Below are positions 23,242-50,809 of a stretch of 51,368 nt of DNA, in pieces. The notes beneath the pieces were generated by a model that worked only from the letters and a program-made list of their open reading frames with translations, was not told the origin of the DNA and did not search any database. Position 1 is the stretch's first letter. The number at the start of each line of letters is the position of its first letter. Source of the stretch: a virus. The position numbers and the translations under genes are program-made. The stretch is from IMG/VR virus record IMGVR_UViG_3300045988_135063; one strand, given 5' to 3'.

Positions 23242-23271
23242 ATAAAGTAATTAAATTGGCAAAATGTTTAT
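23242..23271 (-). promoter_or_regulatory. Phage-type promoter-like motif (site d): ATAAAC-N17-ACTTTAT
   Basis: Minus strand: ATAAAC attttgccaatttaatt ACTTTAT. Heads the packaging/structural cluster. Confidence 0.5.
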
Positions 23272-23290
23272 TTTAAGATAGAAATAATTA

Positions 23291-23311
23291 TTGTTATAAT
23301 TTTTGTAACAA
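23291..23311. promoter_or_regulatory. Palindromic site TTGTTATAA-ttt-TTGTAACAA
   Basis: 9-bp arms match 8/9 as an inverted repeat. Confidence 0.6.
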
Positions 23312-23362
23312 AAGTATCTATTTATAAATATAATTAGAGATATATATATAGTAGGTACTTAC

Positions 23363-23379
23363 GTTACAATATTTGTAAC
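23363..23379. promoter_or_regulatory. Palindromic site GTTACAA-tat-TTGTAAC
   Basis: Perfect 7-3-7 palindrome. Same half-site as 23291-23311, 70 bp centre to centre. Confidence 0.6.
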
Positions 23380-23414
23380 ACAAATTAGTATTTATTGTAT
23401 TAAATATTTAAACA

Positions 23415-23443
23415 CAAAAAAAGGAAGGCTTATTTGCCCTCCT
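23415..23443 (-). terminator. Terminator hairpin around the recombinase stop codon
   Basis: aggaaggc/gccctcct stem (7/8) after an A-run. Confidence 0.5.
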
Positions 23444-24035
23444 CTTTTAAACGTTTTATATACTTATCTATTGTAGGTCTTGAGATACCAGTATTTCTAT
23501 GTATCTCTGCTTTTGTTATTTCTCCATTTTTGTAAAGTTCATATTGAGCCATAAATTGCTCTGGAATATCAAGGGTACTCCATTTCGGACGACCTAGCTC
23601 CACACCCTTAGCTTTAGCTTGAGCCATACCAATTCTAACCCTTTGACTTAACATATCCCTCTCCATTTCATAGAACACCATCATCATTTTCAGCATTCCC
23701 TCAGTCATGGCATCAATGTCTTTCGTACAATCAATAGTAAAAGTTCCTATTATTAATTTTAGCTTTCGATCCTTCACCACCTCAATTAATTCGCAGAGTT
23801 GTTTTGTACTTTTAACCATCCTAGATACTTCTGTACTTACAATAGTATCTCCAGTATGTACTGCCCTCAGTAAGTTTAAAAATTGTGGTTTCTCGTCTGT
23901 TGTATTATACTCTATATCCATAAATATATTATCAACTGGAACTCCCCTTTTAATTAAATCTGTTATTAATTCGCCTCTACCTTGTTTTGATGTTCTTAGG
24001 CTACATTTTGTATATCCATATATTTTATTTGCCAT
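23430..24035 (-). CDS. Small serine recombinase (resolvase/invertase family) with C-terminal HTH; several catalytic positions substituted
   Basis: ATG at 24033-24035. YGYTKCSLRTSKQ, GDTIVSTEVSRMVKS and EMERDMLSQRVRIGMAQAKAKGVELGRPK match the family layout. Confidence 0.75.
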   Translation of the reverse strand: MANKIYGYTKCSLRTSKQGRGELITDLIKRGVPVDNIFMDIEYNTTDEKPQFLNLLRAVHTGDTIVSTEVSRMVKSTKQLCELIEVVKDRKLKLIIGTFTIDCTKDIDAMTEGMLKMMMVFYEMERDMLSQRVRIGMAQAKAKGVELGRPKWSTLDIPEQFMAQYELYKNGEITKAEIHRNTGISRPTIDKYIKRLKEEGK

Positions 24036-24071
24036 TTTTCGTTTACTCCTCATGTATCATGTATAGGTAGT

Positions 24072-24100
24072 ATTTTATCATAACTGTAAAATTAATGCAA
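24072..24100 (-). promoter_or_regulatory. Sigma-A-type promoter TTGCAT-17-TAAAAT for the recombinase
   Basis: Minus strand: TTGCAT (24095-24100), 17-nt spacer, TAAAAT (24072-24077). Confidence 0.55.
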
Positions 24101-24125
24101 TGTTTTTCTTTACGTTTATGTATAT

Positions 24126-24156
24126 AAAAATAGAGAGGTGGGTAGCCCCCTCTCTA
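24126..24156 (-). terminator. Strong terminator hairpin upstream of the recombinase promoter
   Basis: tagagagg.ggg/ccc.cctctcta stem after an A-run. Confidence 0.65.
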
Positions 24157-24512
24157 TTTAAACATTATTTTTGGGGGTTAAACGTTTTGTAACAAATTTA
24201 ACCATTTATTATTATATGATAATTTCCAGTATATTTAAATAGTGGTTTTTTGGATAATATGGTAAATATTACGAGCCTCTGAGAGCCATTTTAAGCAAAG
24301 CATGGATATATAGGTATATGGCTTTTGGTACAATGGATTTTTGAAAAAGCATATTTTGTAAATCTGGAGTGTTTTACTGTAGGATCGAAAAGAATGCCAA
24401 TAAATATACTTCCCCAAAGTTAACCCAAAAGTTAAAAATTATTTTGTAAAAATTTTTTTCTGTTTTTGATTTTTTGGATTAGTGAAAATCTGGATAGGGG
24501 GGTAGGTGTCTG

Positions 24513-24541
24513 TAGAATATTGTTAGAATACTTTTAGAATA
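24513..24541. repeat. TAGAATA x3 at 11-bp period
   Basis: Copies at 24513, 24524 and 24535. Confidence 0.8.
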
Positions 24542-24603
24542 CTTTACCCCCAAAGTTAAAATTTATTGTATATTTGTTAGATAGGTTAGTCCTAGAGGTA
24601 GGA

Positions 24604-24618
24604 GGGGGGTGTCCCCCC
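24604..24618. repeat. G/C-rich palindrome GGGGGGTGTCCCCCC
   Basis: Perfect 6-bp arms. Related G-rich motifs lie at 24497-24510 and 24626-24633. Stands out in AT-rich DNA. Confidence 0.85.
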
Positions 24619-49031: not shown

Positions 49032-49242
49032 CTTGATCTCCTCCTGTTACCTATTTAAATTGGTAATCTCTTTCTTATTATTATTTTTTTTATTTCTTGT
49101 TTCTTATTATATATATTTAAATCAATTCGTTGCGAATTGTTATAGACCTTTTTATCTCAAGCAAGTTATCTAAGATTTGATTTTTATATTATAACCGACT
49201 TGAGCGACTTGTTTTGTGTTTCTTGTCCTCTTGACAATATTT

Positions 49243-49271
49243 ATTATATATCATATCAAAAAATAATGCAA
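49243..49271 (-). promoter_or_regulatory. Sigma-A-type promoter TTGCAT-17-TATAAT for parMR
   Basis: Minus strand: TTGCAT (49266-49271), TATAAT (49243-49248). Abuts iteron cluster 1. Confidence 0.6.
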
Positions 49272-49274
49272 TAC

Positions 49275-49330
49275 TTTTTTATATATTTTTTATATAAATT
49301 TATATATTTTTATATATACTTTATATATAA
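49275..49330. repeat. parC-like iteron cluster 1: five TTATATA-type repeats at 10-11 bp period
   Basis: tatat cores start at 49280, 49291, 49301, 49311 and 49322. The 38-nt segment 49280-49317 is identical to 49397-49434. Confidence 0.8.
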
Positions 49331-49380
49331 TTTAGGTATACCAACAGTTTGAGCCTCATATCTTTTTCTAATTTTCTTTA

Positions 49381-49476
49381 TTTTTTATATACAATATATA
49401 TATTTTTTATATAAATTTATATATTTTTATATATCTCTTATATACAGTATATATATCATATAATCTTTATATAAAG
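49381..49476. repeat. parC-like iteron cluster 2: about eight TTATATA-type repeats at about 10 bp period
   Basis: tatat cores start at 49386, 49395, 49408, 49418, 49428, 49439, 49448 and 49468. Confidence 0.8.
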
Positions 49477-49505
49477 TTGCACAATACCTGAGTTTATCCT
49501 AAACT
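49477..49505 (+). promoter_or_regulatory. Sigma-A-type promoter TTGCAC-17-TAAACT for the zinc-ribbon gene
   Basis: Plus strand: TTGCAC (49477-49482), TAAACT (49500-49505). Confidence 0.45.
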
Positions 49506-49526
49506 GCTATTAAGGGGGGTAATTCT

Positions 49527-49748
49527 ATGAAATGTACTGCTTGTGGTAGTGAAATGATGTGTGTATCAGTTTGTGAAGGAGTTTTTGCTGAGGATGTTCT
49601 AGGTGATGATGTCAGATGTACTGGGGAACTGTGTTATTTAAATGATAATAAATGTAGTAAGTGTGATGCTTGTGCTTATGATACAATAGTAAACATTAAA
49701 GAATATCGTTGCCCAGAATGTGATTCGGTGATACAACATACTTATTAA
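49527..49748 (+). CDS. Cys-rich zinc-ribbon protein (73 aa)
   Basis: AAGGGGGG RBS. CTAC, CSKCDAC and CPEC pairs. Plus strand, divergent from parMR. Confidence 0.65.
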   Translation: MKCTACGSEMMCVSVCEGVFAEDVLGDDVRCTGELCYLNDNKCSKCDACAYDTIVNIKEYRCPECDSVIQHTY

Positions 49749-49774
49749 ACTCATATGTCTTTTAATTTCCATTT

Positions 49775-49811
49775 AAAAAAGGAGAGGTTCATCTGCCTCT
49801 CCTTATTTTTT
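49775..49811. terminator. Bidirectional terminator
   Basis: 9-bp stem aaggagagg/cctctcctt with an A-run on the left and a T-run on the right. Confidence 0.7.
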
Positions 49812-49823
49812 CCTATTTCAATT

Positions 49824-50747
49824 TTACAGTTCCATAAAATCAGAATAATCTGCATCTATATAATCAGCAGTTTGATCTATCAACTGCTTACTTTTCTTAT
49901 CTGCTTTTTGCTGCTCCAGTAAAACTCGTACTACCTCGTTGCATAACCATGAGCAAAGCATACCTATAGTTGGGTATGGGTATTTACTATTCCCCCATCT
50001 TGATGGGTATTCCTTTATCGTTAAATGTATAATCTCTACAATCTCATCAATACTAAAATTCTTTATAAGTTTGTTTTTAATTAAACCTAAATCCCTTTTA
50101 TAGTTTATTACATATGACTTGCCATATGCCTCTTTATATTGTTCTGCAAAATAATGTGCAAGGTCTTTACTATTCTTAATAACTTTCTTAGATGGTTCTA
50201 TAACCTCCTCAGAGCCATTTTCCGTAGTTTCTACAACCTTATCAGTAATTTCATCAACAGGACTATCACAACCTGTTACAAGGGCATCCTCTCGTACCTC
50301 AAACCTATCCTCATCTATAGCATCTATATCAACTGTATTTATATCTCTATGGTCCTCTATATCAATATCTTTAGGTGAAAGATCGAATATAGTATATACA
50401 GAGTTTTTACGTTGACCTGTTCCCCTTAAAACTCTATCTAAGATAGGCATTCCATTTATCTGTATCTCTAATAAGTTAGATACTGCTTTGTTTACAGTAG
50501 TTAAAGATAAACCTGTTATCTCTGCAATCTGTCTTTGTGTGGGATAGCACTCTCCTCCAGTATTCATAAATGAGGCTATTCCTAATAATACCGTAAGTTC
50601 CGAACCCCTCACATGATGGAGTAAACCATTCCTAATAGCAGTAACATCTATTTTTAAATAGGTATCATATCGAGTCTGCTTATTTGTGGCATCATGCTCA
50701 GTATTAAACACGATAGATAAAAATTTACCAGTTTCTATATTTTTCAT
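49824..50747 (-). CDS. wHTH DNA-binding protein, replication-initiator-like
   Basis: ATG at 50745-50747 after AAGGAGG. ECYPTQRQIAEITGLSLTTVNKAVSNLLE. First gene of the replication cluster. Confidence 0.5.
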   Translation of the reverse strand: MKNIETGKFLSIVFNTEHDATNKQTRYDTYLKIDVTAIRNGLLHHVRGSELTVLLGIASFMNTGGECYPTQRQIAEITGLSLTTVNKAVSNLLEIQINGMPILDRVLRGTGQRKNSVYTIFDLSPKDIDIEDHRDINTVDIDAIDEDRFEVREDALVTGCDSPVDEITDKVVETTENGSEEVIEPSKKVIKNSKDLAHYFAEQYKEAYGKSYVINYKRDLGLIKNKLIKNFSIDEIVEIIHLTIKEYPSRWGNSKYPYPTIGMLCSWLCNEVVRVLLEQQKADKKSKQLIDQTADYIDADYSDFMEL

Positions 50748-50779
50748 TTTATCAAGTCCTCCTTTAATCATTACAATAA

Positions 50780-50809
50780 CTAAAGTAATTACGATGATAA
50801 AATGTTTAC
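50780..50809 (-). promoter_or_regulatory. Phage-type promoter-like motif (site e): GTAAAC-N17-ACTTTAG
   Basis: Minus strand: GTAAAC attttatcatcgtaatt ACTTTAG. About 33 nt upstream of the ATG. Confidence 0.5.

Follow-up and report, generated by a model that had tools for sequence, protein, structure and literature searches.

A putative phage-encoded, ECF-like sigma factor and its lineage-specific promoter class in a Clostridia-type phage genome

Some bacteriophages reprogram the host RNA polymerase with sigma factors of their own, as exemplified by gp28 and gp33/34 of SPO1 and gp36 of phiEco32. This report deals with what appears to be a further, very divergent system of this kind: a gene for a 214-amino-acid (aa) sigma-like protein and twelve copies of a two-block intergenic motif in a 51,368-bp stretch of virus DNA (IMG/VR record IMGVR_UViG_3300045988_135063), which is referred to in its entirety as the window. 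The extracytoplasmic function (ECF) promoters of Bacillus subtilis share the -35 consensus tGAAACnTTTt (PMC5758882). BacL2 is reported to be a transcriptional positive regulator of the Enterococcus faecalis bacteriolysin Bac41 (bioRxiv 10.1101/2020.11.20.391417). RinA/ArpU-type proteins are small late-operon activators of Gram-positive phages, and RinA acts at a single promoter upstream of terS (PMC3152322). Sequence comparison together with a structure model makes it likely that the twelve sites form a phage-specific promoter class to which the 214-aa protein redirects the host core RNA polymerase. The verdict reached here is that its gene encodes a putative phage-encoded, autoregulated, ECF-like sigma factor of a Clostridia-type phage. 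The first-pass annotation of the window had called a phage-directed promoter specificity plausible, and this view is supported by the anatomy of the promoters, by their misfit with sigma-A, and by the lineage-wise co-variation of protein and motif. The protein family is new to annotation and the promoter code is lineage-specific; the kind of system (a phage sigma cascade, an autoregulated ECF sigma factor) is known.

All twelve copies of the motif listed in the first-pass annotation as RTAAAC-N17-ACTnnAT are present where it placed them, in intergenic DNA and on the minus strand, which is the sense strand of the genes that follow. The full pattern, however, is found at eight of them; the sites at 35195, 39523, 44063 and 50780 match the RTAAAC-N17-ACT core only and carry CATT, TATC, TAAA and TTAG, respectively, in place of nnAT. 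The strict pattern has eight matches in the window, all on the minus strand, against 0.23 expected, and none of 100 shuffles reached eight. The core TAAAC-N17-ACT has 18 matches in the window (4.0 expected). Alignment of the twelve sites gives the consensus RTAAACA-N15-T(T/G)ACTnnAT-N3-TG. TAAACA is found in all twelve, in other words the A after AAC is invariant; a T-tract comes next in 6-9 of the 12, and six read AACATTTT. The -10 block is T(T/G)ACT at every site, and a TG lies 7 nucleotides (nt) past ACT at nine. Most sites have the TT before ACT (TTACT) that had been described as usual, but those at 39523 and 41733 read TGACT. No intergenic site with a 16- or 18-nt spacer was found in the window. 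A position-weight matrix made from the twelve sites gave them scores of 31-46 bits, with no other sequence of either strand above 8 bits, which shows the discreteness of the class only, because the matrix was trained on the same twelve sites. All twelve fall within the 16% of the window that is non-coding. A check on strand and coding status, proposed earlier as a way to refute the motif, thus found the sites on the minus strand only, in non-coding DNA only, and enriched over shuffles.

The placement of the sites relative to genes is likewise regular. The distance from the T of ACT to a start codon supported by a ribosome-binding site (RBS) is 30-39 nt at ten sites, the exceptions being those at 23242 and 43307. 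The first-pass annotation had put ACTnnAT about 25-35 nt upstream of such a start at nine sites; measured from the end of ACTnnAT, the distance is 26-35 nt at ten. Several of the "longest open reading frame (ORF)" starts in the program-made list fall on the conserved TG block, and the starts with a GGAGG-type RBS lie further downstream. The sites were also said to lie usually just after a terminator hairpin. Seven of the twelve do have a scanned terminator-like hairpin within ~55 nt upstream or overlapping.

The comparison with relatives is the strongest support for the proposed sigma/promoter pairing and is regarded as decisive. The contigs that carry homologs are syntenic, with genes in the order primase, the sigma-like protein, an SSB-like protein, exonuclease, RuvC, thymidine kinase, deoxynucleoside kinase (dNK), and NupC. 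The homolog lies directly after the primase gene in each lineage, the L011 homolog being in a chromosomal phage-like element. Expected counts in the relatives are from dinucleotide shuffles. In L002, whose protein is 74% identical to that of the window, TAAAC-N17-ACT occurs eight times (1.16 expected). L009 (47% identical) has six copies of CAAACA-N16-ACT (0.13 expected), L011 (34%) two of GTAACA-N17-ACT (0.07), L010 (31%) five of GTAACA-N16-GTAT (0.04), L012 (28%) eight of AACA-N17-ACTnATTA (0.03), and L022 (about 19%) nine of GTCAC-N18-AACTTA (0.01). Three copies of GCGTCACA-N16-nAC(A/T)T were found by eye in L013 (23%). The motif of Clostridium tyrobutyricum phage vB_CtyS-FA70 (FA70), whose protein is recognizable at 16% identity (hhalign probability 99.2%, E = 3.7e-19), is GTCACA-N16-TACAT, with ten copies in L001 (0.04 expected) and one in the rest of the genome. 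The motifs of the relatives are two-block, intergenic and on the sense strand, one per lineage, and when seven patterns are tabulated against nine loci, the result is essentially diagonal. The sigma-like gene itself is preceded by a site in the window and in all eight relatives examined; in L006 (52% identical) a single site was found, CCCAACA-N15-TTACT, and it is the one before this gene. L007, with a 72% homolog, has a different, uninformative gene context and no motif.

The most telling of the relatives is FA70, an isolated phage. It lacks the window motif (4 matches against 4.1 expected). Enrichment of k-mers in its intergenic regions yielded tGTCACAAtc-N12-cCTACATAT de novo. The protein in question is ORF33, which is annotated as hypothetical, occupies the same gene position, and is a family member by profile comparison only. 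One of the 11 FA70 sites precedes ORF33, and one lies on the opposite strand before one of the few opposite-strand genes. A tblastn search of plasmids with ORF33 and a search for literature on this phage found nothing. Further evidence comes from eight pairs of orthologous promoters in the window and L002, in which the -35 block is 96% and the -10 block 95% identical, compared with 46-59% for flanks and spacer. The L022 motif combines a -35 block of the FA70 type with a -10 block of the window/L012 type. The C-terminal helix reads VQRTK in three proteins (FA70, P0014, P0023), and all three go with GTCACA. Because of this mixed motif and the pairing of VQRTK with GTCACA, a separate reading of the two blocks by two protein domains fits.

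What kind of protein goes with these motifs? The earlier description of the product as sigma-like is borne out by a family-level profile, a predicted structure, Foldseek, and NCBIfam matches of family members, but not by the window protein taken alone. Homologs are few, 4 among 5.8 billion proteins and 18 among 1.84 billion cluster representatives. They include proteins of two isolated Clostridium tyrobutyricum phages and are annotated as hypothetical everywhere. A tblastn search of phages with the sigma-like protein returned nothing, a second homolog search gave no named proteins, and the ORF (43384-44043) had no match at E<=0.01 among PHROG families, including those annotated as sigma factors. 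A hidden Markov model (HMM) of the 18 members, scored against PDB sequences, had sigma factors as its top matches: SigI6 (8i24_F, E = 8.2e-4, region 2) and SigH (3mzy, 2.6e-3). Region 2 of SigI1 was also matched, as was FliA (whole-protein E = 5.8e-3), in which the region 4 stretch was weak (9.4 bits, i-Evalue 9.2). An HMM of five close homologs gave a single irrelevant match in the PDB.

The structure model points in the same direction. An AlphaFold2 (AF2) model made with the 18 sequences reached a pLDDT of 82.7 and was the one used; with only the five close homologs the pLDDT was 57 and the Foldseek results were meaningless. The model has helical domains at residues 8-112 and 146-207 with a disordered linker between them, and the C-terminal domain consists of four helices with a pLDDT of 79-91. 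The top 50 Foldseek matches in the PDB were mostly sigma factors, the best being a B. subtilis SigH model (probability 0.96, E = 0.031), followed by Thermus and mycobacterial SigA chains, SigD, WhiG, and AlgU. Among the viral models of BFVD, the best named matches were phage sigma-70, ECF and RpoE-like proteins (probability 0.91-0.99, best E = 0.009). TM-scores were 0.3-0.4 because the two domains are joined by a flexible linker.

Family members also match sigma models of NCBIfam, namely SigK (4.4e-6), SigB/F/G (1.6e-5) and sigma-70 PRK08295 (2e-5), besides SigI, SigH and ECF models; E-values of members with the SigK, SigB/F/G and SigH models are of the order of 1e-5 to 1e-2. Pfam Sigma70_r4 matches neither the window protein nor the members. 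TIGR02937 (sigma70-ECF) does not match the window protein and matches one of the 18 members (E = 0.0045, 16.6 bits against a cut-off of 42.9). The nearest named family is BacL2 (NCBIfam NF041508), which matches nine of the 18 members as well as FA70 ORF33 (34.4 bits, E = 1.9e-8, nearly full length). None reaches its curated cut-off of 200 bits, and the window protein does not match it. It is concluded from these profiles and the model that the 214-aa protein probably belongs to the sigma-70 superfamily as a very divergent member, with a remote relationship to BacL2 and scores below every curated threshold. Its gene is monocistronic and lies between terminators, with one (43375-43350) directly after it and a new promoter from 43336, and there is no co-transcribed anti-sigma gene.

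The sites do not look like sigma-A promoters. The statement that the elements do not resemble TTGACA/TATAAT holds: the hexamer at 17 nt from TAAACA is CTnnAT, without the essential A at position 2. A TAT-rich or TAnnnT-like run past ACT is 20 nt from the -35 block, and its final T is kept at three of the twelve sites. A sigma-A reading, with TAAACA as -35 and either TACTnT or the downstream TAT run as -10, was therefore rejected on spacing and key bases. None of the twelve sites was among the matches of a scan for sigma-A-type promoters, and sigma-70-like matches were rarer than in shuffled sequence in two scans (86 against 112, and 41 against 57). Good sigma-A-type promoters are present elsewhere in the window: TTTACA-17-TATAAT at 916-888, before an ORF that spans the junction of the window's ends, TTGACT-17-TATAAT at 26190-26162, and TTGCAT-17-TATAAT at 49271-49243, before an actin-like gene that has a sigma-A-type promoter in L002 and L012 as well. 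Because such promoters exist and are kept in relatives at the actin-like gene, two promoter classes appear to coexist, as expected for a cascade.

The two sigma-A-type promoters at 26135-26190 and 49220-49271 share TATAATAAATATTGTCA(A)GAGGACA from the -10 hexamer into the leader, which suggests a putative common early regulatory or leader element.

Other known promoter types were tried and rejected. The TTTACA -35 of TcdR-type promoters would fit the wrong strand only, and SigD-type promoters (TAAA-N15-GCCGATAT) are off by 2 in spacing and differ in the -10 block. Promoters of T7-like single-subunit RNA polymerases are likewise a poor fit, since the window has no gene for such a polymerase and the motif is bipartite with a non-conserved spacer.

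If the sites are promoters, are they read by a new sigma factor? One alternative is that host sigma-A holoenzyme reads them with the help of a phage activator or appropriator, the 214-aa protein, the 109-aa region-4-like protein encoded elsewhere in the window, or both binding RTAAACA and recruiting the polymerase. MotA/AsiA at T4 middle promoters and RinA-type activators at late promoters are analogues. TAAACA agrees with TTGACA at four of six positions, the description of BacL2 is that of a transcriptional positive regulator, no curated sigma model matches the window protein, and the region-4-like helix-turn-helix protein is co-conserved. However, the -10 block is an invariant T(T/G)ACT, not TATAAT-like, and leaves CTnnAT, without the essential A, at sigma-A spacing. 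It also varies by lineage (TACT, AACT, GTAT, TACAT), whereas host sigma-A specificity is constant, and the N-terminal domain of the 214-aa protein aligns with region 2 of sigma factors, for which an activator would have no need. An activator is thus judged unlikely. A two-part specificity factor, in which one of the two proteins reads the -10 and the other the -35 block, or in which the small protein converts the holoenzyme for a subset of promoters such as the late operon, is distinctly unlikely, even though it has analogues in SigO-RsoA of B. subtilis and gp33/gp34 of SPO1. Both genes are kept in the window, L011 and FA70 and are adjacent in L011, just ahead of tail genes, and the late and replication-initiator promoters bear extra upstream palindromes. 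Yet the 214-aa protein already has a confident C-terminal helix-turn-helix domain in the AF2 model, its C-terminal helix tracks the -35 sequence across lineages, and one consensus describes all twelve sites with no visible subclass.

That the phage exploits an alternative sigma factor of the host, an ECF-type stress or a sporulation sigma, is highly improbable. The -35 block AAC-n-TTTT is of the ECF class, and the CATAnnnTA-like -10 block of FA70 is reminiscent of the SigK consensus; but the CGT that ECF promoters typically have is missing from the -10 block, phages with close synteny have different versions of the motif, each of them absent from the others, and a copy precedes the sigma-like gene itself in every lineage. 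The idea that the sites are not promoters at all, but operators, recombination or packaging sites, or RNA-level signals between genes, is the hardest to credit: two of them do overlap terminator hairpins, but the two blocks are asymmetric, with rigid -35/-10-like spacing and strict orientation, both are conserved where the spacer is not, and the sites lie after terminators at a constant 30-39 nt from an RBS-supported start codon. Several observations nevertheless weigh against a sigma factor dedicated to these sites. The window protein alone has no match in Pfam, PHROG or NCBIfam; Pfam Sigma70_r2 matches only one of the 18 family members (E = 0.0026); no single Foldseek match in PDB or BFVD has E<1e-3; and the description of BacL2, the nearest named family, speaks of a "transcriptional positive regulator" only and not of a sigma factor. 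The co-conserved 109-aa protein may be the reader of the -35 block. The patterns of the relatives were counted in the very loci that had supplied them, and part of the co-variation of protein and motif follows phylogeny. No site precedes the virion operon of FA70, so the same factor need not drive late genes everywhere.

How would a sigma factor of this kind work? In the inferred scheme, which covers core polymerase binding, start sites and timing, the C-terminal helix-turn-helix domain (sigma-4-like) would read the -35 block RTAAACA, with the T-tract next to it, and the N-terminal domain (sigma-2-like) would read the -10 block T(T/G)ACT, which follows after exactly 15 nt. Transcription would start near the conserved TG, 7-9 nt past ACT, and give 5' leaders of ~22-31 nt. 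The first expression would come from a few host sigma-A-type promoters, for example those at 916-888 and 49271-49243, and some sigma-like protein would be made by read-through or from a weak promoter. This protein would act at the promoter of its own gene, creating positive feedback; because of this site, the sigma gene would amplify itself. It would then act at the 11 other sites, which serve replication, nucleotide-salvage and virion/lysis operons. Terminators would insulate the operons from one another, and some of them share sequence with the next promoter. The sites and the two candidate regulatory genes are listed in the table.

Table. Positions in the window of the twelve motif sites and of the two candidate regulatory genes.
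Feature	Coordinates	Strand	Context
Site 1, ATAAACA-N15-TTACTTTAT	23242-23271	-	Before ORF 22886-23179 and the whole virion/lysis operon; 67-nt leader with a small hairpin
Site 2	29769-29798	-	Before the deoxynucleoside monophosphate (dNMP) kinase gene 29202-29738, then the region-4-like gene 28883-29212
Site 3	31113-31142	-	Before ORF 30793-31110; RBS-supported start ~33 nt past ACT
Site 4	33894-33923	-	Before the family-A DNA polymerase gene 31567-33891
Site 5	35195-35224	-	Before ORF 34452-35162; 11 nt past terminator 35258-35235
Site 6	37752-37781	-	Before 37427-37723 and the NupC-like gene 36220-37398; -35 block in the loop of hairpin 37790-37768
Site 7, -10 block TGACT	39523-39552	-	Before 39235-39510, then the thymidine kinase and dNK genes
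Site 8, -10 block TGACT	41733-41762	-	Before the Cas4-like exonuclease gene 40776-41702; -35 block in the loop of hairpin 41774-41749
Site 9	43307-43336	-	Before ORF 42455-43186 via a ~125-nt leader; 14 nt past terminator 43375-43350
Site 10	44063-44092	-	Immediately before the sigma-like gene, whose start codon is 39 nt away
Site 11	47678-47707	-	Before the replication operon: DnaC-like 46884-47675, DnaB-like 45616-46884, primase 44309-45253
Site 12	50780-50809	-	Before the HTH_36/RepL-like gene 49824-50771
Sigma-like protein gene, 214 aa	43384-44028	-	Proposed specificity factor for the 12 sites
Sigma70_r4/YlxM-like helix-turn-helix protein gene, 109 aa	28883-29212	-	Passes Pfam Sigma70_r4

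Some of the sites have features of their own. The virion/lysis operon that follows site 1 extends from the terminase large subunit gene (20754-22472) through the endolysin gene (1484-2266). The hairpins at 37768-37790 and 41749-41774 form terminator-promoter modules in which the -35 block lies in the hairpin loop and the T-tract of the terminator is the spacer of the promoter. The same overlap is found at orthologous places in L002 (11394, 16483), L009 (3734, 7372), and L012 (9152). The 131-nt gap that precedes 45254-45484 contains a lone -10-like block, TTACTTTATgtatTTG (~45515-45530), but RTAAACA is missing at the appropriate distance; the block may mark a weak or factor-independent start or have arisen by chance. 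The leader between site 9 and the SSB-like gene (43187-43306) is long (~110-150 nt) and conserved in position (L002 10609-10715, L009 2741-2882). It opens with a small stem-loop that shows compensatory changes (AAGGT..ACCTT vs GATGG..CCATC), and RNAalifold found no larger conserved structure in it. A sigma-A-like match, TTGAAA-17-TATATT (43270-43242), lies inside this leader.

Palindromes are found upstream of some of the promoters. A duplicated region of ~140 bp (23272-23380 and 50810-50905) lies upstream of both the late promoter (23242) and the replication-initiator promoter (50780) and contains the palindromes GTTACAAATATTGTAAC and GTTACAAAAATTATAAC, ~70 bp apart (23293-23309 and 23363-23379; 50818-50834 and 50887-50903). 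This region is also conserved upstream of the orthologous gene in L002. Judged by their sequence, the paired palindromes look like operators for a dimeric regulator that would co-control the late and replication-initiator promoters. Another palindrome lies ~25-45 nt upstream of the promoter of the sigma gene (window 44114-44131). It reads ATTACAG-N4-CTGTAAT in L002 (~9760-9780) and L009, and AATACGG..CCGTATT, a compensatory change, in L006. It is degenerate in the window, where it overlaps a sigma-A-like match, TTTACT-17-TATAAT (44142-44114). This palindrome is a candidate operator that would gate the master switch. Extra control is likely because palindromes occur upstream of the late, replication-initiator and sigma promoters.

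The second candidate gene had been described as region-4-like, and its product does pass Pfam Sigma70_r4, with 25.9 bits against a cut-off of 24.1. It also matches phrog_3512, "sigma factor" (1.7e-10). In L011, the gene next downstream of the sigma-like gene encodes a protein 51% identical to the 109-aa protein, whose identity to FA70 ORF68 is 27.5%. In L011 (7027-8101), the sigma-like (34%) and region-4-like (51%) homologs are adjacent, each with a GTAACA-N17-ACT site. The pair lies just upstream of phage tail genes, on a chromosomal contig beside Dak/Fe-ADH genes; a 26-nt probe from the Fe-ADH gene matches genomes of Terrisporobacter, Paraclostridium and Peptostreptococcus (Peptostreptococcaceae), among others. 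The two genes look like a minimal regulatory pair in a putative prophage-like element. The role of the 109-aa protein may be that of a partner, of a modifier for late genes, or of a regulator in its own right.

The window represents the whole, circularly assembled genome of a siphovirus-like phage; its G+C content is 30-34%, and almost all genes lie on the minus strand. Its first 27 bases are identical to its last 27, and a 395-codon ORF spans the junction (1-857 joined to 51038-51368); because of these two features it is read as a circular or permuted whole-genome assembly. The protein encoded across the junction has an N-terminal helix-turn-helix and a TQDVQD repeat, and its promoter is the TTTACA-17-TATAAT at 916-888. 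The left 23 kb carries genes for terminase, portal, capsid, tape measure, Dit, Tal, tail fibre, and endolysin. The right half carries genes for replication and DNA transactions (family-A DNA polymerase, DnaB-like and DnaC-like proteins, primase, Cas4-like exonuclease, RuvC, two methyltransferases). Also encoded in this half are kinases for thymidine and deoxynucleosides, a nucleoside transporter of the NupC type, an actin-like protein for partition, and a protein similar to RepL/HTH_36. The large ORFs of the window are all assigned to virion, lysis, replication or nucleotide metabolism, and none of its genes was found to encode a phage RNA polymerase. A megablast search of INPHARED phages with 8 kb of the window matched none of the deposited phages at the nucleotide level. 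Among DNA polymerases, the closest (52% identity) is that of Clostridium tyrobutyricum phages vB_CtyS-FA70 and FA67. A scan of IMG/VR matched only a sibling contig (98% identical), a scan of GTDB genomes with patterns from close homologs found nothing, and neither did Rfam and tRNA scans of the window.

Several modules of this genome deserve mention. A nucleoside-salvage module consists of the NupC-like gene (36220-37398), dNK (37804-38457), and thymidine kinase (38658-39251), all within 36220-39251, together with the dNMP kinase gene (29202-29738). It is kept in all relatives (L002, L009, L010, L012, L022), several of which add a nucleoside deoxyribosyltransferase. Phages do not usually carry a gene for a membrane transporter, here one for Na+ and nucleosides. 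Positions 23430-24053 encode a serine recombinase of small size (207 aa, Resolvase plus helix-turn-helix), beside ~1 kb without convincing ORFs (24054-25090) where the GC skew is locally flat; this region could be one of resolution, integration or packaging. A SleB-type cell-wall hydrolase (Pfam Hydrolase_2) is encoded at 27800-28222, in the early/middle region and separate from the endolysin, which is consistent with a spore-forming host. An AT-rich iteron array of TATATAAA-like units (49290-49480) is followed by TTGCAT-17-TATAAT (49271-49243) and the actin-like (ALP_N) gene (48102-49031), a layout that recurs in L002, L012, and L022. The iteron array, the actin-like gene, the RepL/HTH_36-like gene and the small serine recombinase suggest plasmid-like partition, in other words a plasmid-prophage (phage-plasmid) lifestyle.

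The sigma-factor reading assigns a function to a protein family that is "hypothetical" everywhere, and the transcription map of this phage group comes with it at almost no extra cost. By this reading, the Enterococcus regulator BacL2 may itself act as a sigma factor. For low-GC Firmicutes, in which such genetic parts are scarce, it also provides a naturally occurring set of compact and apparently orthogonal sigma/promoter pairs, and the modular changes of -35 and -10 blocks across lineages are a data set for the evolution of sigma specificity. A wider proposal can be put forward only tentatively. BacL2-type proteins, including the family of the window protein, might be an unrecognised clade of minimal sigma factors. 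One autoregulated member might serve as the single master switch for replication and virion genes in these Clostridia phages with plasmid-like partition genes; palindromic operators before the sigma, replication-initiator and late promoters would gate it. The -35 and -10 specificities might have been exchanged modularly, giving at least seven naturally orthogonal pairs, some with promoters in terminator loops.

How does this system compare with those already described? As with the sigma factors of SPO1 and phiEco32, host sigma-A would start transcription and a phage sigma factor would take over, with its own -35/-10 consensus before middle and late operons. However, those proteins have no detectable sequence relationship to the window protein (PHROG, E<=0.01), and here a single promoter class covers both replication and virion operons, with a code that is lineage-specific within one syntenic group. 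BacL2 is the nearest named family, similar in size (~200 aa) and reported to be a transcriptional positive regulator, but member scores of at most ~34 bits lie far under the 200-bit cut-off and indicate remote homology only. RinA/ArpU-type activators resemble the 109-aa ORF in size and in position near the end of the replication module, a likeness of size and position; unlike the one promoter of RinA, the window has 12 sites over early, middle and late regions.

A further parallel is with ECF (group 4) sigma factors such as SigW, SigV and SigX of B. subtilis (PMC5758882), whose two-domain architecture with a flexible linker resembles the model of the 214-aa protein, with its putative sigma-2-like and sigma-4-like domains. 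Their promoters also combine AAC with a T-tract in the -35 block (RTAAACATTTT in the window, tGAAACnTTTt in ECF promoters), adhere closely to consensus and are rigidly spaced, and the site before the sigma-like gene would correspond to the promoter that ECF factors have before their own genes. On the other hand, the -10 block is T(T/G)ACT rather than CGT(A/C), and the AAC of the -35 block is missing from the sister lineages FA70, L022 and L013, which use GTCACA. The window gene also differs from ECF genes in lacking a co-transcribed anti-sigma gene, and its product has an N-terminal extension of ~60 residues. Finally, the window factor is encoded by a phage and seems to govern most of its genome instead of a stress regulon.

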